In this document: piece after piece, positions 11,985 through 24,165 of the stretch
Layout of the letters: each line of letters starts with the position of its first letter
Position numbering within the stretch: the first letter of the stretch is position 1
Assembly (NCBI GenBank): GCA_963798485.1
Contig: CAWCTR010000032.1
Location: forward strand, 1-64,000
Direction: 5' to 3'
Length of the DNA stretch: 64,000 nucleotides
Origin: an uncultured delta proteobacterium
Lineage (GTDB): Bacteria; Desulfobacterota; Desulfomonilia; UBA1062
Position numbers and translations under genes: made by a program
Notes under the pieces: model-generated
Seen by the model: only the letters and a program-made list of their open reading frames with translations
Databases searched by the model: none
Told to the model about the DNA's origin: nothing

Positions 11985-13019
11985 ATGGGCACCATGGAAG
12001 TGGCATATTTAACCATAGGCCTGGGGTTGTTCTTCAACTTCAGTAACGGATTTCACGATGCATCCAATATTGTAACCACCATTGTTTCATCCAGGTCCAT
12101 GACCATACGAAGCGCACTCATCATGACCGCCCTGCTCGTATTCCTCGGATCTCTCATCGTTGGCACCGCCGTAGCAAAAACCATTGGGCAGGGGATCGTC
12201 GGCATAGACTCCATGACCATCACGGGTATCATCGCAGCCATCACGGCCGCCACCCTCTGGAATATCCTCACCTGGGTCATCGGACTTCCCTCGTCCTCTT
12301 CCCATGCCATTATCGGGGGACTTATGGGGGCGGCGTTACAGATCTCAGGGGTGAATTCCATCCAATGGATGAGCGTGCTGCTCATATTCGGGGTAATCTT
12401 GATCTCGCCGCTCCTTGGCTTCATAAGCGCATTCAACCTCACCAAGTTGAACTTCCGCCTCTTCCGGCATGTCCACCCGGTAGTGGCAACGCGCATGCTC
12501 AAGAGACTCCAGATAATCTCCGCAGCCATGCTCGCCATTTCCCATGGGACGAACGATGCACAAAAGGCCATGGGGCTCATTACCCTGAGCCTGCTCGTAC
12601 TGTTCCGATACGACCCTGCAACCATGGCACACTTTTATACCCCGGGCACCGGGGGGGCCTTCGTGGTCCCAATATGGGTCATCCTTGCCTGCTCGCTGGC
12701 CCTCTCACTGGGCATGCTGACAGGTGGAAAACGAATCATAAAGACCATGGGCATGAAGCTCTTCAAGATAAAACCGATCCATGGTTTCGGGGCCATGCTG
12801 TCCACTTCACTGGTAGTGTTTATCTGCTCACTTTTCGGGTTTCCCGTGAGCACCACGCATATCGCCTCATCAGGTATTGTAGGAGGGGGGGCGGCACAGC
12901 GCCTCGGTATTGTCCGGTGGGGACTTGCCAAAGAGCTCCTGTTCACCTGGATTTTTACCATTCCCGCATCCGGCGGCCTGGCATATTTGCTGTCGCTGGT
13001 ACTGAAACACGTTTTTTAA
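11985..13019 (+). CDS. PiT-family inorganic phosphate transporter
   Basis: NGFHDASN, GLPSSSSHA, HGTNDAQK and PVSTTH motifs. Confidence 0.93.
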   Translation: MGTMEVAYLTIGLGLFFNFSNGFHDASNIVTTIVSSRSMTIRSALIMTALLVFLGSLIVGTAVAKTIGQGIVGIDSMTITGIIAAITAATLWNILTWVIGLPSSSSHAIIGGLMGAALQISGVNSIQWMSVLLIFGVILISPLLGFISAFNLTKLNFRLFRHVHPVVATRMLKRLQIISAAMLAISHGTNDAQKAMGLITLSLLVLFRYDPATMAHFYTPGTGGAFVVPIWVILACSLALSLGMLTGGKRIIKTMGMKLFKIKPIHGFGAMLSTSLVVFICSLFGFPVSTTHIASSGIVGGGAAQRLGIVRWGLAKELLFTWIFTIPASGGLAYLLSLVLKHVF

Positions 13020-13254
13020 TTGTCCATTATTAAGCGACCAGCTTAAGCCTCATACCAGCAGACACAACCACCATAACAGGCCTGAGCTTTTCATAGATCT
13101 TCTACCAAACAGGTTACGAGGTTGTTCGCTAACTTCCCCCCTAGGCAAAACAAGACCCCCCCCTTATTTCTCCTTAATAATAAAGGACCTAATGCAATCT
13201 CTCCTGAGTCATCACATTACCATGGCATGAGCTCGTGCTAAATTTAGATGTGGT

Positions 13255-14927
13255 TTATTGGGGGCTTACAAATGGACCAACAAGTAAAAACCAGCCTGGG
13301 TCATCTGAATCTACCCCTGTTGTAGATCCAAGCCAGCCATTATTTCCATAACTGGTGGAGTCATTGACAACTTGCTGACCGCTGGTTTCGTTTAGGGGCC
13401 AATAAGCGACAAGGCCCGTTTCACTGCCGGTCAAAGTCGAATTCATGTCAGACTCGATCTCGCTTGCATTCCTAGCCGTGTTCCATATACCTACATTCAT
13501 TAGGTCACCTTCAAAATAATAATTCCAACCTGTTCTATCCTGGCAGCCAAGGGTCAAAATCAATGAATTGCCTATAGATGGGGTCCCTGGGGCGCTTCCA
13601 GCTTCAGTTCCATTGACATATATAATCAAGTTCGAACCGTCGTAGGTCCCCGCTACATAGTACCATGTATTGGTTTGTAAAGATAATCCAGTACAATAGG
13701 CATAGACTTGGTCCACTCCATTTTCACCGATATAAAAATAGAATCCATCACCGTTCTGAGAAAGGTAATATGAACCTTGTGCACCGTCACTCCCCTTTGC
13801 AATCAGCATTTGATTGTTGTCATAAACGATAGTAGCCAGATTTACCCACAACTCAATCGTAATCCGAGATGGGTTCAGAGATGTACTATTGGGTACCTCC
13901 ACACGATCACCATTTCCGAAATCCAAACATGTATTCTGGGGCAGTACAGTAATTTTACGAGATGCGGAGCTCTTGCACCTTCGCATCAGAGACCTGGAAG
14001 GTAACAGTGTAAGTGCCTGCCGTCTTGAAAGTAACAGTGCCCGGGTTTTGAACCGATGAGTTTGTGGCCCCTCCGCCGAAGTTCCATGCATAAGTATACG
14101 GTGAGGTGCCCCCAGTCACTGTTCCCTGGAAATTATCGGATTCACCTAGAGGGATTGTAACATTAGTAGTCGGGGAGGTAATGGCAGCAGCTATTCCTCC
14201 TGGAGAATTTATGTTGACTACTACCGATGCAATGCTCGATTTATTATTCGAATCCGTTACTGTAAAGGCCACTGTATAGCTACCTGGAGTACTGAATGTT
14301 ACATTACCAGGGCTTTGAACTGAAGAATTCGTTGCTCCTCCTCCGAAGCTCCAACTATATGTATAAGGTGCTGTGCCCCCACTGGCTGATCTCTGGAAAA
14401 TGACCGATTGACCGACGGTTATCGTTTGATTGCCTGTCGGCGAACTGATTACTGCAGTAAGAGATATAACAGAATCAAGAGGAAACGTCCCGATATTGGT
14501 ATTCTGACCGGCAACGATAGTTATGCCTGTTTTTGTTCTCTGATATAGACCTGTCCCATTGGCATCTTTTGCTGTTACAATGATCTTATACCCCGATCCT
14601 TCCGGTATATTATCCACCATACCCGTGTGGTCAGAGCATGACCAAGATTCTGATGTAACGGTTGTGCCGCTACCATCAGTAAAAGTTGCAGCAACGTTGC
14701 CACACCTAGTGAAGCGCAATCCACATTCGTAATAGAAGATGCTTCAGGTGGTATGCCATTTTGTTTCATTGATGCATTAGCAGGCGATTGAATGCTGAAG
14801 GAGACCGAACCTACCTTTGGGGAGTCATTTGATGATTTCTCTGTGCACCCTGAAGGCACGGGAAGAAACAGATGGTTATCACGAAGAAAACAACTTCCAA
14901 ATACTTATACCAGGTCAGCTGTTTCAT
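13255..14927 (-). pseudogene. Frameshifted lipoprotein: N-terminal domain + 2 PKD repeats + LamG/concanavalin-like domain (copy A)
   Basis: Four ORF pieces join into one protein (lipobox LQG|C; GGTAPYTYSWSFGGG...PGSYTVAFTVTD; ITIELWV...WYYVAGTYDG...GLVAYWPLNE). Frame breaks near 14848, 14695 and 13980. Confidence 0.8.
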
Positions 14928-15000
14928 AATAACCCCCATTCTCTCTATGAACAACAACTTACTACCCCCAAGCATGCTACAGTGTATTAGCATATAGATA

Positions 15001-15085
15001 AGTTCATTGTTTTCAGCCCCGAGATCATTATCAAGTTTATCAAATGCTTTATTAACCCAGCAGTTATTGCTTTTCCAAACTTTCC
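15001..15085 (-). pseudogene. Remnant of an LPP20-like lipoprotein 3' end
   Basis: Minus strand reads ...KAITA|VNKAFDKLDNDL, matching KAVIERADKAFEELDNEI (22445 gene) and EAIIDRADKAFEYFDKNI (16810 gene). Confidence 0.55.
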
Positions 15086-15130
15086 TAAAATAACATACCC
15101 GATGTGATTATATCTCCATAAAGAGTTGTC

Positions 15131-16741
15131 CTAATTTGAGTAGAGAGTAACATTGTCATACCATACAGTCGGGTTATTACCATGTCCTGCGTTTATGCTG
15201 ATTCCTGTAGGCATGCCACTGTCCATGATCTGATTACTTGAGCCACGAAGCACTCCGTTTATATAGACAGTAAACGTACGAGCTGTAAGATCGACAACCG
15301 TCTTTACCAAATACCAGGTCTGTGCCGAATATGGCATGAGTAATATATTTTTTGACACATCGGAATATGACTGTACTGCATAGATATTTCCATCGTTATT
15401 GAATGAAACCCCCCCAAATCCTGTCCCCCAACTCCCTATAGATGGGTTAAAAAGCGCAGGTATTGCAAAGTCTGGCGTACAACCACCACTCACTATAGAA
15501 TCAATAAATATATTATATTCAAAAATTACACTCGCTGGGATATTAATAGTATTAAATATTTGGGCTCCCCAACAGCTTGATCCTTCGAGATGTAATGACT
15601 GACTTCCTGATACTGAATGTGTGTTGTCTATATACTGATATGATGTACCTGCACCATTATAGATGATCTGCCAACCTCCTGAGCTTGGGAACGTACCTAG
15701 AGCATAAGAATCAAAATTATCGCTGAAGATTAAAGAGCTGTTGAGTTTGAACAGTAATAGTAACAGAAGCACTGTTTGTGTTACTATTTGTATTGTAACT
15801 GTAAATGTCACGGTATAGCTTTTGGTGCTACTGAAAGTCACATTGCTTGGGTTTTGAACTGATGAGTTTGTGGTTTCTCTGCTAAAGTTTCACTGATAGG
15901 TGTATGGAGCAGTGTTGCTTGTGGTTGACTTTTGGAAGTTCACTGACTGACTTGCAGTGATAGTAACATTCGTGTTGGGGAGGTAATGGCAGCAGCTATT
16001 CCTCTTGGAGAATTCACGTTGTTTACTACTGATGCACTGCTCGATTTATTACTCGAATCTGTAACTGTAAAGGTCACGGTATAGCTTTTGGTGTGTGCTG
16101 AATGTCACATTGTTAGGGTTTTGAACTGAAGAGTTCGAAGACTCTCTACTAAAGCTCTATGCATAAGTATACGGTGCATTGCTCTCAGTCACTGTTCTTT
16201 GGAAATTAATCGTTTGACTAGTGGTTATCGTTTGATTTCTTGTAGGTGAACTGATTACTGCAGCAAGGGAATTTATAGGATCAAGTGGAACTTCTCTGAT
16301 GTTGGTATTCTGACTGGCAACGATCGTTATGTCTGTTTTTGTTCTCTGATATAAAGCTGTCTCATTGGCATCTTCTGCTGTTACAATGATCTGATACCCT
16401 GACTCCTCCTGTATATTGTCTACAGTACTCGTATGGGCAGAGCATGACTATGATCCAGTTTCAAGGGATGTTGTACCGGTACTATCAGTAAATTTTGCAG
16501 CAACTGTTGCCACACCCAGTGAAGTGCAGTCTATACTTGTTATGGAAGATGCGTCACGTTGGATGCCGGATTGTTTCTTTGATGCATCAGCAGGCCATTT
16601 GATGCTGAAAGAGGCTGAACCTACTCTCTCCGCATACTGCGATGAAGTATCATTCCCACCGCACCCCTGGATGCATAAACAGATACAGATAGCTACGATA
16701 AGAAAGGTAACACAATCCTTATGTTGGATCAGCTTACCCAT
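15131..16741 (-). pseudogene. Hypermutated paralogous lipoprotein: N-terminal domain + 2 PKD repeats + a different beta-sandwich C-terminal domain (copy B)
   Basis: Lipobox IQGC; aligns to copy A. Trp codons read TAG/TGA (16448-16450, 16157-16159, 15890-15892), Gly codons are replaced, and there are frameshifts. Confidence 0.85.
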
Positions 16742-16809
16742 ATTGGCTCTCCTCATAATCAGCTTTGACCACCACCAGCCATCTACATGCCAGCTATAAG
16801 TATATAATT

Positions 16810-17397
16810 TTATTTTGTTTGGTTCTCGATATTCTTATCGAAATATTCAAAGGCCTTATCAGCCCGATCTATAATTGCCTCCTTCAACCCTTCCGAGAAG
16901 TCCCCCCTATAGATGCTTTCCTTGAACTTCTCTGCATGCAAAGCGACCAGGACATAGTAGGTGCCGTTATCGCTTACCCATGAATCCACCATTTCTGTTC
17001 CCGATAGATTCATATCGGATACCTGTTTTGAAATGATCTCAATATGCTGCTCATCGACTGCATCGGTTCCGAAATGATCTTTCCCGGTGGTGGTAGCTTG
17101 GTAATCCTTCAGCAGAGAAGTGATTGTGACCTGGATCTTTCTGGCAATATCCGCACGTGCCGGAGCAGGGCAGATTCGCGGGCAATTCAGGGTTTTGGAC
17201 TCCTCCAACGCCCCAACACCGCAGATCACCTTGTCGGCCTCATCCGTCTTCCAGTAGGAGCTGCACCCCCTGGTAACCCAATCGGGCGCACCCTTATATT
17301 CCTGCAGCATAACCTTCTCGGGCGACGGTGGTATCTTCGGCCCGCAACCGAGGAGAACGGCACCGGCACAGAGGGCAATGATACCTACCTTTACCAT
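16810..17397 (-). CDS. LPP20-like lipoprotein (short internal frame-scrambled segment)
   Basis: Lipobox LLGC, GAPDWV, ARADIAR...LSGTEMVDSW; paralog of 22445-23056. Confidence 0.75.
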   Translation of the reverse strand: MVKVGIIALCAGAVLLGCGPKIPPSPEKVMLQEYKGAPDWVTRGCSSYWKTDEADKVICGVGALEESKTLNCPRICPAPARADIARKIQVTITSLLKDYQATTTGKDHFGTDAVDEQHIEIISKQVSDMNLSGTEMVDSWVSDNGTYYVLVALHAEKFKESIYRGDFSEGLKEAIIDRADKAFEYFDKNIENQTK

Positions 17398-17495
17398 GTT
17401 AAATGATCTGTTTATCCCCATGGGATCAGCCCTGCAACAAAGGTAGGCCATCTCACAGCCCACCGAGTCTGATGCATTATTGTCCTTTCAAGATC

Positions 17496-17825
17496 CTACC
17501 ATGTTAAGGTTGCGCTTCCGGTATGCCCAGTGTTCTGGTTGCTGCCGCCTCCACCGCTGCCTCCACCACCGCCACCGGCAGCGGCTGCAATCCCTCCGAC
17601 CAGGACAAGCAGACCAAGAGTCCACCAGAGCCATCTATGCCCTGATTTTTCACCGATCTCAGGCGAGGTGTGGACCTCAGGGGTATGTTTCGTTATGCTC
17701 GTCGTCGGCTGGGCCGTTTCGTCGGCAAAGATCACCGCGGGCATGAAGAATATGATGGTTGTGAAGATAAGAAACAGGGTCAGCACGTTTCTTCCTAGTC
17801 TCATAAAACCTCTCCCTGAGAGCAT
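17496..17825 (-). CDS. Small exported/membrane protein with Gly-rich tail
   Basis: Signal peptide, WLWWTLG hydrophobic helix, poly-Gly and C-terminal LTW. Confidence 0.65.
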   Translation of the reverse strand: MLSGRGFMRLGRNVLTLFLIFTTIIFFMPAVIFADETAQPTTSITKHTPEVHTSPEIGEKSGHRWLWWTLGLLVLVGGIAAAAGGGGGGSGGGGSNQNTGHTGSATLTW

Positions 17826-17844
17826 ATTAGTTTATCTATAAAAT

Positions 17845-18743
17845 TTACTTTGTTATTTTGTAAGTGAGATCGGCTTCTTCCATCTCATTCCTTGGCAGCG
17901 TGATGATATAGTTCAGAAGGTCATGCAAGGCCAGTTCGTAGGTCCCATATTGGGACTGGCTGCACAGACTTTCAAAGGAAGATTCCTTCTTTGTCGAAAG
18001 GATTTTGATCACACCCATGTCGATACTCTTCCCGTTCGGGAGAATCGCCGGGATGGTTATGCCCATTTTTTCCTGGTTATTGCTGGGGAATTCAAAATTC
18101 TGGCCCTTCCTCACGAAATTATCCCCACAGTATTTGTTGGGAAAAAGGACATAAACCACATTATCCGATATGTCCAAGACGGTAAGGTAACAGTCCTGTG
18201 TGGATATCAGCTTAATGCGCAGTGTGTCGCCCACTTTGTACACATCCCGGTTCAGGGAAGCCTTGATGGAGAAATACGGGTCTTTCTGACCTTTCTGCGT
18301 GCCGATCTTAACCCTCAGCCTTACGACCTTCTCGACATTCTCACCATCATTGACCACCTTCTCGTCGACGATCACCTTGTCCAAGATCACCCCATTTGTC
18401 GTCAAGCTGGTCAATGAAAGAAAATCGTTTTGGATTACCTGGTGGTTGCTTTCCACCTGCACATCAAGGTTTCTCTGAGATACTTCAAAACCACTGTACT
18501 GAATGGCCTTTATGCAGGCATTGATGATGGCTTTTCTTTTGGCCTTTTCGGGGGTAATATTCGCTTTGCTTGCCTGCCAACTGCCTCCACCCATCCTCCT
18601 CCGATGGGTTTTACGTTCTCTTCCTTGACAAAACCGTTTTTTCTGGGGGCATTGTTGTTTTTGGGAACCACGCCTTTATCGTAAGCGCAACCTATCGCAA
18701 TCATCAAAAAGATCGCTAAAAATATTGCTCTATACTTTCTCAT
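17845..18743 (-). pseudogene. DUF4384-like lipoprotein split by a single frameshift near 18577
   Basis: 5' piece has lipobox AIGC...WVEAVG; 3' piece has QASKANITPEKAK and 'YKVGD.LRI...DCYLTVLDI...VYVLFPN'. Confidence 0.7.
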
Positions 18744-18775
18744 GTTAAACTTCAGCAAAACAAGCTCAGGGCTGA

Positions 18776-20143
18776 TTAATATTTCACAAGCGGTCTATTG
18801 AGAAAGATCCCCTGGATGGTCGGGTTCTGCTTTCTCCCTTGATGGAGATATCTTGCCCAATAAGGAACACCTTCCGTATTATCACTCACATATTCGTAGA
18901 GTTCCTCGTATGTCAGGATATCGCCTTTATCTTTATGTGCATCTCCTCTTAATCCTTTAAGGAGAAAATAAGTGAACAGACCATGATGATTTTCATCATA
19001 CCAGCTGCTTATCTGATCACTTTCGCAACTGGTCATATAAACGGCATTCCCTTTGGATATGGTAGGGTTGGAGACCTTGATCCCGAAGGGACTCGCGCTG
19101 GCTATTAAATATTTTCCGGTACTGGATCCCCCGGAAAAGCATGCATCTAAAACTACGGTAACGTTCTTTGCTTTTAACTGAGCGATGTTCTCATTAAATA
19201 CATCCAATGAGTAGCCGCTCAGGGCAAATTTCAACGAATCACAGTCCGAAGGGACAAAATAACCTTTCAATGTATCGATATCAGGGGCTCCATGCCCGCT
19301 GTAGTATATAAAAACATCTGACTTTTCCGGCTTAATCAAGTCATAGAGCTGGCCTTCATGATTTCCCTTGATACCGAAAATCTGCTCAAACTCAGCCTTG
19401 GTCGCATCGAGCTTGACGATTATATTGCTCTCTTTGTAGCCTAACATTTTTACGAGATATTCTTTCATTACCTTGGCGTCATTATGTGCATATTTGACTT
19501 CAGGGATATCGTTGTTTTTGTATTTCCGGTTTCCGATCACGACGGCAATGGCATCAGGATTGTGCATGCCTGTCTGGGGTATATTCATGTCGATGTCTGC
19601 AACAAGCGGGATTTCCTCACTTGCCTGCGGGCTTGGCGTGCTCGCGACAACAGGGGTGGCAACAGGGGCTACCATATCAAAAGAGTTATTCGCTATGCGG
19701 TCATTATCGTAATAAACATACACCGTCCATCTGCCGGGAATATCCTGGGCCTGTTCTCCCTTCACCGATATCTTGTGAGTTGCCGTCAAATCCTCTACAT
19801 ATTTCCCTTCCGAAACGCTTATGGGATAATTATCCGAGGTGTCGTAGAGTTTGCCCTGGGGGTCATACCACTCCCACCTTAAATAATGAGAACCCGATAC
19901 ATTCTTCAGTTTGATGTATGAAATGACTTCCGAATCTTTGGGGGTGAATTTCACCATTGCGATACCAGGGGTAACCTGATCGCCGTATTGATATACCTCC
20001 TTCACAAGAAGCGATTTGTCCTACATAAACATCCGCCCTTTTAATTCCTGGTTTGATGAAGCGCATCCGCTGATAAGAAAGGTCAGGCTGAATAGGAAAA
20101 CCAGGCAAAGGGGAAAAGTGGAATTATCTCTATATCTATACAT
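18776..20143 (-). CDS. Caspase-family (peptidase C14) lipoprotein with an in-frame TAG at codon 41
   Basis: Catalytic motifs YYSGHG and LDACFSG. ATG 20143 (GGAGGAGG RBS) with lipobox ISGC is in frame with ORF 18776-20005, separated only by TAG at 20021-20023. Confidence 0.8.
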
Positions 20144-20255
20144 AGATACCTCCTCCGCCATTCAGCAAGTGTAATAAAATTAAGTGAATTTATATAATAT
20201 CATAAACAAAATACATTATCAATCTGCCTTGCATTGTGTTCCTCCATATTACTAA

Positions 20256-20281
20256 GACAATTTTGCTATCAAAAAGTTCCC
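20256..20281 (-). promoter_or_regulatory. ECF sigma-type promoter 1 (caspase operon)
   Basis: Minus strand GGGAACTTTTT-GATAGCAAAA-TTGTC. Confidence 0.75.
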
Positions 20282-20328
20282 AGTGGTTGATTCGATATTC
20301 AGTGGGGCAACACCTTAATCAAATATTT

Positions 20329-21318
20329 TTATTGATCACCGATAGCGGTTTCTATCTTTACCGTTAAGATGTCTTGAGTGATTTCGCTTGGGATATTCTT
20401 GGCGTTCAGGTAGCCCAGCTTCTTGAGTTTCTCGATCAACGCAGTTAACTGCCGAGAGCCGATCTCAACCCGGTAGAGTTCTCTTTTCTCAAGTGACTGA
20501 TAGCTGATTGTTTTCGCATTGAATTCTTTTAATACAGCTTCAACTTCCGGCGATGCCGCACTCAGGTCCCGAACAGTTAAAGCGATTTCAACAGGGGTGG
20601 TCATTGGTACTGCCGAACTTTTGTTTGCCGCCTCGGTGATCTGGGGCCCGGATCTCTGGGGAAGTGCGACGTCTCCCTTCTGCCCGTGGCCTGTCGTTAG
20701 AGTAGATGGCGATTTCTTGCTTCCCGCTCCTGCAGATGTTCCGGCCAGGTGACTCGATTCTTCAGAATTGGATTCTCCTTGCACCGATGGTCCATGTGCG
20801 GATTTATCGGCTGATGGCTCTACCCCGGCTCTTTCATCCTGTTTCGTTCCAGAGTTACTGCCCGCTGGTTGTATTTTCCCTGGTCCAGTTAGAGTATTAC
20901 TCCTCCCTTGTGGATTTGTGTGTTTTTCTGCATGGAAGAGGGGTATCTGATGCTCGATCTTGATAAGTTCTGGTTCGGGAAAACTGATCCTGTAAAGGAA
21001 TATCGCTATCACCGCCACCAGAGCAGAGGCAAGAACCTTAACCGGGACCCCGACAGTAAAGAAATCATGGATCTTATCGAAGAGATTCTTTTTCTGTGAT
21101 TCCTGCTTAATCTGTGACATTATCTTCTGGGTGAACCATGGCGGTGGCTCGACCTCCCCGAGATTGTTTACCAGGACTACGGTCTGCCTGAGCTCTTTAA
21201 GCTTTTTGCTGCACAGGGTGCATGAAGCCAGGTGAGTTCTGATTGCATCCTTTTCTTCTTCACTGAGGGCATCATCGATGAAGCCTGTGAAGAGGTCTCT
21301 TATGTCGTCGCAGTTCAT
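20329..21318 (-). CDS. Zinc-binding (zf-HC2) transmembrane anti-sigma factor
   Basis: MNC...HLASCTLC motif, one TM, overlaps the sigma gene stop. Confidence 0.9.
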   Translation of the reverse strand: MNCDDIRDLFTGFIDDALSEEEKDAIRTHLASCTLCSKKLKELRQTVVLVNNLGEVEPPPWFTQKIMSQIKQESQKKNLFDKIHDFFTVGVPVKVLASALVAVIAIFLYRISFPEPELIKIEHQIPLFHAEKHTNPQGRSNTLTGPGKIQPAGSNSGTKQDERAGVEPSADKSAHGPSVQGESNSEESSHLAGTSAGAGSKKSPSTLTTGHGQKGDVALPQRSGPQITEAANKSSAVPMTTPVEIALTVRDLSAASPEVEAVLKEFNAKTISYQSLEKRELYRVEIGSRQLTALIEKLKKLGYLNAKNIPSEITQDILTVKIETAIGDQ

Positions 21319-21980
21319 ATCATTATCTCTGCATGGTCTAAGACATCCATTAGACAGTCTTTTAAAGAATTCCTCGCCCTGAAGAGCCTCGACTTCACCG
21401 TCCCATCCGCAAGATTCAGCATAGATCCTATTTCTTCATAGGATAAGCCCTGCATGTCCCTTAAGATGACGACATCCTTGTGTTCGTCGTCGAGGGCGTT
21501 GATACAGTCCTGAACCTTTCTCTCAAGTTCTCTCTTCTCCAGTCTTTCATGAGCGGAACAATCTTCTGACGGGATCTCCATCAGCGTGCTCCCGTCCTCG
21601 GTTTCCACAGGGGCGTCAAGAAAGATACATTCATGGCAGCTGCGGGTATTTTTCTGTTTCAACTTGTTCCGAGAATGATTGATGACTATAGTGGTGATCC
21701 AGGTCGAAAAGGCCGCATCGCCCCGGAAATTTGCAAGCGCCTTATATGCAGAGAGGAAGGACTCCTGAACGACCTCACAGGCGTCTTCATAGTCATCCAG
21801 CATCCGGTATGCAATGTTCAGCATTCTCTTTTGATACCTCTCAACAAGCAACTGAAAGGCATCCAAGTTGCCTTTTCTACATTGTGCGACGGAGGCAAGA
21901 TCATCGTCCCGGACACTCGGGTTACTGGGAGAACCGCGAGGGTAGTTTCCCTTGATAGGCCCTTTTTCCGTAAAGTCCAC
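21315..21980 (-). CDS. ECF sigma-70 factor (RpoE/SigW-like)
   Basis: DACEVVQESF, FSTWITTI, LSYEEIG..L...GTVKSRLFRAR. Confidence 0.95.
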   Translation of the reverse strand: MDFTEKGPIKGNYPRGSPSNPSVRDDDLASVAQCRKGNLDAFQLLVERYQKRMLNIAYRMLDDYEDACEVVQESFLSAYKALANFRGDAAFSTWITTIVINHSRNKLKQKNTRSCHECIFLDAPVETEDGSTLMEIPSEDCSAHERLEKRELERKVQDCINALDDEHKDVVILRDMQGLSYEEIGSMLNLADGTVKSRLFRARNSLKDCLMDVLDHAEIMI

Positions 21981-22370: not shown

Positions 22371-22396
22371 GGGAACTTTTTTCATATTTGATTGTC
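22371..22396 (+). promoter_or_regulatory. ECF sigma-type promoter 3 (LPP20/protease operon)
   Basis: GGGAACTTTTT-TCATATTTGA-TTGTC. Confidence 0.75.
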
Positions 22397-22444
22397 ATAT
22401 TCAACATGACTCAAATGAGAATATCAGACGGGGAGGATCTAATC

Positions 22445-23056
22445 ATGAAGGTAGAAAGGCTTCTTATCGTTGTACTGGCAGCAGTGTTCTTCATCGGTTT
22501 TATATTTGCTGCAGGTTGCGCAAAGAGGGTCGGCCCGCCGGAGATCAACACCATGATCGGCCAGGAAATGGATGGTGCTCCGGACTGGGTTAAGGGCAAA
22601 GGTTGCACGACTAAGAAGGCTGACAAGACCATATGCGCAGTGGGCTCCATAGGCGGTACCCGAAATATTTCTCTGGCTCGCGAGGCAGCTATAGAGCGAG
22701 CAAGAGTTCAGATGGCAAGGACCCTTCAGGATAAGGTTATGGCCATGCTGAAGAGCTATCAGGCCACAACGACGGGGGGGCAGGAATTCGGTACATCAGC
22801 GGCTGATGAGCAGCATGTGAGAGATGTATCAAAAACTATAACAGACATGACGCTTTCGGGAACCGAGATGAGGGATTCGTGGGTAAGCAAGACAGGCACT
22901 TATTATGCGCTGGTCGAGCTCGATGTCGATAAATTCAAGGATACGGTCAACAAGATTCAGAACCTCTCTGAATCAGTCCGCAAGGCCGTTATAGAGCGGG
23001 CTGACAAGGCCTTCGAGGAACTCGATAATGAGATAGACAAACAGGAGAGCAAGTGA
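22445..23056 (+). CDS. LPP20-like lipoprotein
   Basis: GGGGAGG RBS, lipobox AAGC, GAPDWV, LAREAAIERARVQMAR. Confidence 0.8.
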   Translation: MKVERLLIVVLAAVFFIGFIFAAGCAKRVGPPEINTMIGQEMDGAPDWVKGKGCTTKKADKTICAVGSIGGTRNISLAREAAIERARVQMARTLQDKVMAMLKSYQATTTGGQEFGTSAADEQHVRDVSKTITDMTLSGTEMRDSWVSKTGTYYALVELDVDKFKDTVNKIQNLSESVRKAVIERADKAFEELDNEIDKQESK

Positions 23057-23091
23057 TCGACTCCGTGTAATTTATTAAGAGGAGAACTGCC

Positions 23092-24165
23092 ATGAGGAAC
23101 TACCTTGCATTTCTGCTTATCTGTCTGCTGGTCCCGACGCTGATGCAGGCCTCAGATTTTGTGCCAAGAGATATCTATAAAAAGGCCGCTGCATCGGTCG
23201 TGTTCATATCCGGATTCAACGAAGGGAAGGCCATCGGCAGTGCAGGCAGCGGATCCATTATCACTCCTGACGGCCTGGTCTTGACAAACAATCATGTCAT
23301 AACCGATTCCACGAAGAACAAGACGTATGATGATCTCGTCATTTGTCTAAAACCAACGCAGCTCACCGGGGACGAAACTAAGGATTTAGGCGAACGTTAT
23401 AACGCTGAGGTTATTGCAAGAAGTGTTGATCTCGATCTTGCCGTCCTGAAGATAAAAGGCGTCAAAAAGGAACTCTGTGTATTACCGATAGGAGACGCAG
23501 GGAAGATTGTAACCGGAGATCAGGTAGCTGCGATCGGGCATCCGGAAGGCGGAGGATTGTGGATACTCACAACGGGAACGATATCGGGCACTAAGATAAT
23601 AGGCGATAAAGATACCTTCCAAACAGAAGCGAGCACGAACCGGGGTAATTCAGGAGGTCCATTGCTCAACAACAGGAGTACTCTTATCGGCATCAATACC
23701 TGCATGGTGCGCAAGGCAGATGATGGACTTGCCATTGTAGGGGTGAATTTTGCGATTAAGAGCACACAAGTAAAAAAATGGCTCAATGAGAACGGGATAA
23801 AAGTGGCGACAGCATCTACACCGGAAGAATCGGAACCACTTAAGGTGCAACCTGCTCAACCCCAACCCCCAAACGTGCAGCCCGTTCAAGCTAAGCCGCC
23901 AAAGGAATTGGAGATTAAACCTCCAGTTGAAAAAAAACATAAATCTTCTCCTGTCCAACCTTCAATGGACAGCAACCAGAAAGATGAGCCACTGGACAAT
24001 GATTTCACGGAATTCAAAGGGGTAGACGGACAGATCATGTACGGCATACCGGACAGCAATTTCAATCTGGACAGGGCTACCAGGATACTTTACGAAAAGA
24101 CAAAGAAGAATGCAGAAAAATCTTTTAAAGAACTTGATGATCTTGAAAAGGAAATTAATAATTAA
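23092..24165 (+). CDS. Exported trypsin-like (S1C-type) serine protease without PDZ domain
   Basis: Catalytic triad motifs TNNHV, DLAVL and GNSGGPL; Pro/Gln linker. Confidence 0.9.
   Translation: MRNYLAFLLICLLVPTLMQASDFVPRDIYKKAAASVVFISGFNEGKAIGSAGSGSIITPDGLVLTNNHVITDSTKNKTYDDLVICLKPTQLTGDETKDLGERYNAEVIARSVDLDLAVLKIKGVKKELCVLPIGDAGKIVTGDQVAAIGHPEGGGLWILTTGTISGTKIIGDKDTFQTEASTNRGNSGGPLLNNRSTLIGINTCMVRKADDGLAIVGVNFAIKSTQVKKWLNENGIKVATASTPEESEPLKVQPAQPQPPNVQPVQAKPPKELEIKPPVEKKHKSSPVQPSMDSNQKDEPLDNDFTEFKGVDGQIMYGIPDSNFNLDRATRILYEKTKKNAEKSFKELDDLEKEINN

Follow-up and report, generated by a model that had tools for sequence, protein, structure and literature searches.

A strand-specific tract of C>T hypermutation with an APOBEC3G-like context in a bacterial surface-protein pseudogene

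One of two paralogous PKD-domain genes in the genome of an uncultured sediment bacterium carries a tract of about 725 nt in which cytosines of the plus strand have been changed to thymine, and the changes are confined to that strand. They favor the 3' C of 5'-CC, they become denser toward the plus-strand 5' end before stopping abruptly, and they fell on a gene that was already a pseudogene. We believe the tract was probably made in one episode of enzymatic cytosine deamination on a plus strand that was transiently single-stranded, by a CC-preferring deaminase.

The window analyzed here is the first 64 kb of an 83 kb contig (C32), which belongs to a binned genome of 4.30 Mb in 32 contigs that is 97.5% complete with 6.96% contamination. 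The two genes, called copy A and copy B below, lie head to tail on the minus strand (Table 1). The original prediction described them as copies of a duplicated gene. They are indeed paralogs, but old ones: they align over ~790 nt at 77% identity, and while the N-terminal domain is the same in both, the C-terminal domains differ. The C-terminal ORF of copy B has weak Pfam matches to Laminin_G_3 and sialidase-CBM. Both genes are broken, copy A by two frameshifts and copy B by stops as well as frameshifts. The surroundings are ordinary chromosome, with a phosphate transporter, LPP20 lipoproteins, DUF4384 and a caspase-like peptidase, as well as an ECF sigma/anti-sigma pair, aconitase and a class I glutamyl/glutaminyl-type tRNA synthetase. 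The aconitase shares 75-79% identity with those of MAGs that carry the labels Thermodesulfobacteriota, Desulfomonilia and Syntrophaceae. The annotation of the window places no mobile element or deaminase near the two copies. GC skew over the contig is -0.025, which is too weak for assigning the replication strand. From a single DNA run (5% of sampled words) there are contigs at 13000-13057, 14267-14424 and 15247-15412, and none over the tract.

Table 1. Features of the two gene copies, the tract and its lesions (positions count from the first base of the window)
Feature	Position	Strand	Description or basis
Copy A, old paralog	13255..14859	-	N-terminal domain, two PKD domains, Laminin_G_3; unedited
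Copy A frameshifts	near 14694 and near 13960	-	translations
Copy B, surface-protein pseudogene	15131..16741	-	lipoprotein-type signal, N-terminal domain, two PKD domains, ConA-like C-terminal domain
Unedited 3' flank, C-terminal domain	15131..15736	-	protein identical to P0013
Hypermutated tract	15737..16462	+	plus-strand C>T only, seen as G>A on the coding (minus) strand; about 725 nt
Tract core, CC-saturated	15737-16396	+	CC 1 vs GG 31
Partly edited zone	16397-16462	+	binned editing rates
Unedited 5' flank, first 93 codons	16463..16741	-	protein identical to P0024
Trp98 TGG to TAG	16448..16450	-	codon comparison with ortholog
Trp195 TGG to TAG	16157..16159	-	codon comparison with ortholog
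Trp63 of P0013, TGG to TGA	15890..15892	-	codon comparison with ortholog
Sole CC left in core	16001..16002	+	second Gly codon of SPGG, now SPRG
Frameshift common to copy B and unedited ortholog	16084..16102 (near 16092)	-	both out of frame after NVTFS
1-nt deletion, copy B only	15967..15978 (near 15974)	-	ortholog reads through as SPTTNV; from protein comparison only
1-nt deletion, copy B only, Asp96 codon	15786..15799 (near 15793)	-	from protein comparison only
2-nt deletion, copy B only, Gly115 codon (QQG/S)	15732..15743 (near 15737)	-	leftmost trace of the event; from protein comparison only

The right comparator for the editing is not copy A but an unedited ortholog, which is represented in protein searches by two proteins. 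P0013 (316 aa) is 91% identical to copy B's C-terminal ORF, which is intact, and P0024 (230 aa) is 91% identical to the N-terminal read-through of copy B with its stops written as X. Each of the two has 11,845 nt as its longest contig, and we take them to come from one public contig. Together they are an unedited copy B, and every PKD glycine and tryptophan missing from copy B is present in them. A search of 40 relatives brought up no orthologous DNA, a scan of genome contigs with the C-terminal domain of copy B found no orthologous locus, and metagenome contigs gave two 27% matches only and no orthologous DNA. No second, unedited copy turned up when the assembly itself was searched by tblastn for P0013 and P0024.

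Only 42 of 544 codons differ between copy B and P0024/P0013, and every one of them lies within 15776-16462. Coding-strand G>A suffices by itself to account for 41 of the 42 (46 G>A changes); the remaining codon, GTC>AAC at 16023, needs a T>A in addition to a G>A. There is no codon difference that is a pure C>T on the coding strand. This comparison is made at the protein level, with synonymous sites outside it and with ancestral bases taken by minimal codon reversion. The total is at least 47 C>T changes in about 725 nt, or at least about one per 15 nt, and the actual number is probably 55 to 65. The three codons that had been proposed to be tryptophans turned into TAG or TGA, at 16448, 16157 and 15890, all stand opposite a tryptophan of the ortholog. 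It had been proposed as well that editing struck the strand which serves as template in transcription, and this is confirmed.

The order of events at copy B can be read from its frameshifts. The one near 16092 is present in the unedited P0024 too, so it predates the editing, and copy B was therefore already dead when it was edited. Beyond this frameshift P0024 ends in ...NVTFSARRKLYRDLYSYGFE, and copy B ends in ...NVTFSTHQKLYRDLYSYRFE followed by two stop symbols (..GFE against ..RFE and the stops). Three small deletions are found in copy B only. The A run in which the deletion at 15786..15799 falls was probably created by the editing itself.

The tract was first recognized from its dinucleotides, with a single CC and about 30 GG counted by hand on the plus strand between 15698 and 16396. 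Those counts hold up: over these 699 nt there is one CC and there are 31 GG, all within 15755-16396. The homologous part of copy A, at 14040-14580, had been credited with about 40 CC and has 41, along with 28 GG. Finding CC in only 1 of 32 such dinucleotides has p = 1.5e-8 by a two-sided binomial test.

Editing rates by context were taken at the first two positions of codons, wherever the residue in the ortholog fixes the ancestral base, which gives 129 G sites on the coding strand, 46 of them edited. When the next base is also G the site is edited in 30/42 cases, against 16/87 for all other G (Fisher p = 8.6e-9). Broken down by following base on the coding strand, the rates are 30/42 for G, 11/36 for C, 4/22 for A and 1/29 for T. 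On the plus strand this ranks the base 5' of the target C as C > G > T > A. A G on the 3' side of the target C is favored too: of the coding-strand G that follow a C, 10/15 are edited. The original prediction gave CC as the motif of the tract. As a preference this is correct, with the 3' C of the pair as the preferential target, but it is not exclusive, since sites with G or T 5' of the target C are edited as well. Only one coding-strand GG is left in the core because the other G was usually edited where the preferred G escaped.

The editing has a polarity. G before G is edited at 3/8 sites in 16397-16462 and at 3/5 to 5/5 per bin from 16396 down to 15750. Other G are edited at 3/40 sites in 16462-16100 against 13/51 in 16099-15750 (p = 0.029). 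The rate rises toward the plus-strand 5' end and then comes to an abrupt stop between 15737 and 15698. In 15698-15749 the other G are edited at 0/4 sites. From 15697 to 15600 the counts are 0/7 for G before G and 0/11 for other G, and beyond that they are 0/24 and 0/52, while the whole of 15131-15697 gives 0/31 and 0/63. On the opposite side, in 16463..16741, they are 0/11 and 0/38. The tract had been placed at 15698-16450. It is real, but its bounds are not those; they are about 15737-16462, with the last edited codon being G94E at 16462 and no evidence of editing left of 15737. It had also been said to end before the C-terminal domain, and this is borne out by the protein identity of that domain with P0013.

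Copy A is a more distant reference. Over 563 aligned positions in 15832-16396 there are 126 mismatches, and from A to B these include 46 C>T, 11 T>C and 7 G>A. C>T makes up 7 of the 62 mismatches in the flank of the same alignment. Mismatches other than C>T amount to 80/563 in the tract and 55/238 in the flank, so there has been no general decay in the tract and only one change is in excess. A C stands 5' of the changed base at 27/46 converted sites as against 13/69 kept sites, and the enrichment of C>T at CC that the original prediction expected of a full alignment is therefore there. Where copy A has an isolated CC, copy B has CT 13 times, TC 5 times and TT twice, with CC kept once and GC found once.

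We picture the event as follows. The plus strand of copy B, by then a pseudogene, would have been exposed as a single strand over about 725 nt, roughly 15737-16462. Cytosines in it would have been deaminated with an APOBEC3G-like preference for the 3' C of 5'-CC, and the C>T changes would have been fixed when the uracil-bearing strand was copied or repaired. The three small deletions and one transversion would be collateral damage of the same event. The edited version would then have persisted as the allele of the assembled population. Editing would have been neutral, and so have survived, because the gene was already frameshifted.

That changes limited to one strand, one base and one dinucleotide context are the mark of a single-stranded DNA cytosine deaminase is the reason why we infer a deaminase as the agent. 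The original prediction had also read the tract as deamination of exposed single-stranded DNA or cDNA. The signature part of that reading stands (41 of 42 codons explained by G>A, a preference for the 3' C of CC, and the polarity), and the single-stranded intermediate is the part that we infer. Candidates for it are a gap whose filling started on the right, a 3' tail produced by resection at a break near 16470, a single strand taken up from outside, and first-strand cDNA. A limit that is sharp on the 5' side and graded on the 3' side is what one would see if the stretch had stayed single-stranded longest at its plus-strand 5' end. An ordinary R-loop does not fit because the edited strand is the template strand.

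Several other sources of the pattern were considered and rejected. An antisense promoter at the left edge is not indicated, with 7 promoter-like sites there against a shuffled expectation of 6.7. A bias in the dCTP pool does not agree with the sparing of isolated C, and UV damage does not agree with the persistence of TC and CT dinucleotides (41 and 60). Alkylation at 5'-RG would fall on the other G of a pair than the one preferred here, and for nitrosative damage the expected excess of A>G is lacking.

The enzyme itself is not apparent in the genome. A search for an encoded DNA deaminase, which was suggested along with the original prediction, turned up none that is recognizable. DddA-like, DYW, Pput2613 and APOBEC_N have no match in the 97.5% complete genome, and PF08210 (AID/APOBEC) has no genome match at E <= 0.1. 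The MafB19 model together with a zinc-motif scan finds three loci only, all of housekeeping type, which we read as TadA-, dCMP-deaminase- and RibD-type on the basis of motif and length rather than annotation. Because no recognizable deaminase is encoded, the enzyme would have to be foreign, such as the toxin of a competitor or something phage-borne, or else belong to an unrecognized family. Two further observations count against deamination. The genome has a UDG-family gene, so dense uracil should have been attacked. The near-saturation, far denser than eukaryotic kataegis, is also awkward, since all the GG of the core but one were destroyed, some of them through the less favored G.

It is important to ask whether the tract exists in the organism at all. 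A consensus of low coverage could carry the errors of one or a few damaged or miscalled molecules, be they long reads, products amplified from a single molecule or DNA that was deaminated after leaving the cell. The assembly is binned and has 6.96% contamination, and the edited ORF has no 100% match in the protein collection. The three small deletions all lie within the tract, two of them in short repeats, with none in the flanks, and they could be read errors. However, the rest of copy B matches the ortholog exactly at the protein level, long ORFs are intact across the window, and a 700-nt consensus of short reads requires many independent reads. We know of no library or sequencing artifact that prefers CC, is one-stranded, saturates ~700 nt and is sharply bounded within a clean 83 kb contig, and spontaneous, bisulfite-type and nitrosative deamination all lack a CC preference as far as we are aware. 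We therefore think an artifact unlikely. A little less likely still, in our opinion, is a retro-transfer, in which a host reverse transcriptase would have made plus-strand cDNA that took on C>T changes, either by deamination or by misincorporation of T during a shortage of dCTP, and then recombined into the chromosome. The edited strand is the one that first-strand cDNA of the mRNA would be, the tract is entirely inside the transcribed gene, and a sharp 5' and graded 3' end fits primed cDNA whose oldest part was single-stranded longest. There are 8 reverse transcriptase matches in the genome, 3 of them not of group II intron type. Against this, the other 5 are intron maturase types and none of the 8 is on this 83 kb contig, and we know of no bacterial process that returns copies of ordinary mRNA to the chromosome. 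If the dCTP pool had been at fault isolated C should have changed too, yet G is edited at only 1/29 sites before T and 4/22 before A. Nor are the differences between the two copies adenine-specific, with only 64/126 mismatches falling on a plus-strand T of copy B.

The remaining two explanations seem to us very improbable. The original prediction allowed for repeat-induced inactivation, meaning a RIP-like process that senses duplicated DNA and mutates it. The tract does coincide with the PKD-repeat part where copies A and B are most alike, and both copies are pseudogenes. But copy A has no such changes, the two copies are only 77% identical, they are the only skewed pair among 495 duplicate pairs, and the context is CC rather than the CpA of fungal RIP. 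The frameshift common to the ortholog also puts the pseudogene state before the editing. The evidence does not bear this idea out. The other explanation is a cytosine methyltransferase, either driving the changes itself or through deamination of 5-methylcytosine at a motif containing CC. With the liking for a 3' G (10/15) the optimum becomes CCG-like, which recalls the sites of methylases, and the CpG observed/expected ratio of the tract is 0.52 where that of copy A is 0.80. A methylase, however, works on both strands and across the whole genome, whereas this is one strand of one 725-nt stretch, and many of the edited sites have no longer motif in common.

The preferred reading, enzymatic deamination of a single strand, invites comparison with systems that are already understood. 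APOBEC3G causes G>A on the retroviral sense strand, with GG>AG at many sites per molecule, tryptophan codons turned into stops and a graded density. The tract resembles this in having G>A only on the coding strand, the 3' C of 5'-CC as its target, tryptophan stops and graded editing. It differs in sitting in a segment of a bacterial chromosome instead of retroviral minus-strand cDNA, in having G and not T as the second-best 5' base, and in the removal of GG almost to saturation. If the APOBEC3G-type signature is taken piece by piece, C>T on one strand is found (41/42 codons) and so is the preference for the 3' C of 5'-CC (30/42 vs 16/87), and no AID/APOBEC enzyme is found in the 97.5% complete genome (PF08210, E <= 0.1), though one of foreign origin is possible; strand exclusivity and polarity suggest that the substrate was single-stranded DNA or cDNA. 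Kataegis in eukaryotes consists of strand-coordinated C>T clusters with sharp limits, formed on transient single-stranded DNA near breaks or forks, in TC context and with one change per hundreds of nt. Ours is also a strand-coordinated C>T cluster with sharp limits, but it is denser, with one change or more in about every 15 nt, its context is CC and not TC, and it is in a wild bacterium. We do not assign the tract to the APOBEC3G class or to kataegis because no such enzyme is present.

Two further systems act on repeated sequence. Fungal RIP ruins duplicated DNA by C>T, normally in both copies and in CpA context. The tract has C>T changes in duplicated sequence as well, but in one copy and on one strand only, in CC context, with other repeats in the genome untouched (1/495 pairs skewed). 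Diversity-generating retroelements produce differences that are specific to template adenines and have a reverse transcriptase and accessory genes nearby. The likeness here lies in the repeat pair, the directional differences and a surface-protein gene with Ig-like domains. Unlike such an element there is no reverse transcriptase on the contig, the tract is about 725 nt long and stop codons were made. The spectrum excludes this candidate: among the 126 mismatches a plus-strand T stands in copy B at 64 and in copy A at 25.

The closest bacterial systems are the deaminase toxins. DddA (BaDTF1) acts on 5'-TC in double-stranded DNA (PMC13346905), and DddB (BaDTF3) acts on double-stranded DNA in a broad context (PMC13346905, PMC7901873, PMC12494967). 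SsdA (BaDTF2) acts on single-stranded DNA and is described as context-independent or as preferring 5'-YCY (PMC7901873, PMC13346905, PMC12494967). Bacterial single-strand DNA deaminases mutate the genomes of surviving cells and leave C>T behind (PMC7901873), and one bacterial Sdd disfavors CC (PMC11472066). The tract is like the work of DddA, SsdA and DddB in consisting of C>T mutations of the kind left in surviving cells, and unlike it in that the mutations reported for the toxins are scattered and these form one saturated tract (PMC7901873, PMC13346905). Among the bacterial single-strand deaminases described in PMC7901873, PMC12494967 and PMC11472066, none has a preference of C > G > T > A. 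For a DddA-type enzyme the data fit poorly, with T 5' of the target C edited at only 4/22 sites and changes on one strand only. Set beside SsdA, the editing of one strand only agrees, the 5' order of C > G > T > A departs from a preference given as YCY or context-free, and the genome has no DYW-type gene. No member of the toxin deaminase families is found in the genome, although a toxin would come from another cell.

Clustered hypermutation by deaminases is established for retroviruses and for cancer genomes. Bacterial deaminase toxins scatter mutations in laboratory co-cultures. Literature searches turned up no report of a deaminase tract that is strand-coordinated and arose naturally in the genome of a bacterium. 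Copy B may hold the first footprint known from nature of hypermutation in the manner of APOBEC3G on a bacterial chromosome, the trace of a novel CC-preferring single-stranded DNA cytosine deaminase, although we would put the chance of this slightly below even. If it is true, a saturated and strand-coordinated tract in a wild genome would show that natural chromosomes are exposed to enzymes of this kind, and the event would be visible only since it struck an already dead gene. The enzyme may then serve as a weapon, used between bacteria or carried by phages, or as a defense against incoming single-stranded DNA. Its preferences, C > G > T > A on the 5' side of the target and G on the 3' side, would also be revealed by the tract and could interest those who work on base editing.

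Long runs that are free of CC and rich in GG provide a simple scan for how often this happens in bacteria and for single-stranded intermediates that become exposed. A scan of this kind across the whole genome had been suggested with the original prediction, and only this tract stands out in it; the event is unique within this genome. In 42,885 windows of 500 nt there are 13 with CC or GG at 4 or fewer, and the combination of at most 3 CC with at least 21 GG occurs in 3 windows only, all inside the tract. The tract has two adjoining CC-free gaps of 396 and 305 nt, which rank 1st and 4th among the 358 gaps of at least 150 nt free of CC or of GG in the 4.3 Mb assembly. Among duplicate pairs of at least 300 nt, the skewed one of the 495 is the A/B pair, and the next-best candidate, C4:233221, is plain AT drift without a CC preference. 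Candidates of the CC/GG scan at C10:7500-8400, C18:26407-26688, C12:10260, C4:10573, C14:171621, C14:172149, C7:396444 and others proved ordinary. The GG-free stretch at 14913-15171, which adjoins the tract, is AT-rich intergenic DNA; its weak homology to 16611-16900 has 86 mismatches with no clear skew (G>A 12, A>G 7). The 10 other long-gap stretches that we inspected are AT-rich genes, intact ORFs or intergenic DNA.

Copy A of the PKD-domain gene pair (13255-14859, minus strand) is a pseudogene with two frameshifts, one near 14694 and one near 13960, and it lacks the C>T skew. The segments upstream of copies A and B (14801-15090 and 16611-16900) share weak homology. The old duplication seems to have taken in the neighbouring LPP20 gene's 3' end as well. 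Upstream of copy B sits a run of genes that includes one for an LPP20 lipoprotein; another LPP20 gene is found further on (see table).

Features around copy B and reverse transcriptases of the assembly
Feature	Location	Strand
LPP20 lipoprotein, DUF4384, caspase-like peptidase, zf-HC2 anti-sigma factor, ECF sigma factor gene run	window 16810-21980	-
Second LPP20 gene and trypsin-like protease	window 22388-24165	
Reverse transcriptases without intron maturase domain	C7:266011-266703 (same as C18:3891-4583); C17:74951-75643	

Three reverse transcriptases in the binned assembly (GCA_963798485.1) carry no intron maturase domain, and their PADLOC match is generic only. Five further reverse transcriptases belong to the group II intron type.

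A GC-rich stretch of the assembly at C8:187851-191451 has 15 to 26 CC per 400 nt versus the 44 to 53 expected from base composition; its GG is normal and it is not a zero-CC tract. A minus-strand gene at C10:7500-8400 is AT-rich (23-28% G+C) with GG nearly absent, and has the look of a foreign island, not of an edited tract.

Contigs C22 (1-14832) and C29 (6261-21086) have 14.8 kb in common at 99.4% identity. The overlap may stem from a large repeat or from the presence of two strains in the bin; it agrees with the bin's contamination figure of 6.96%.
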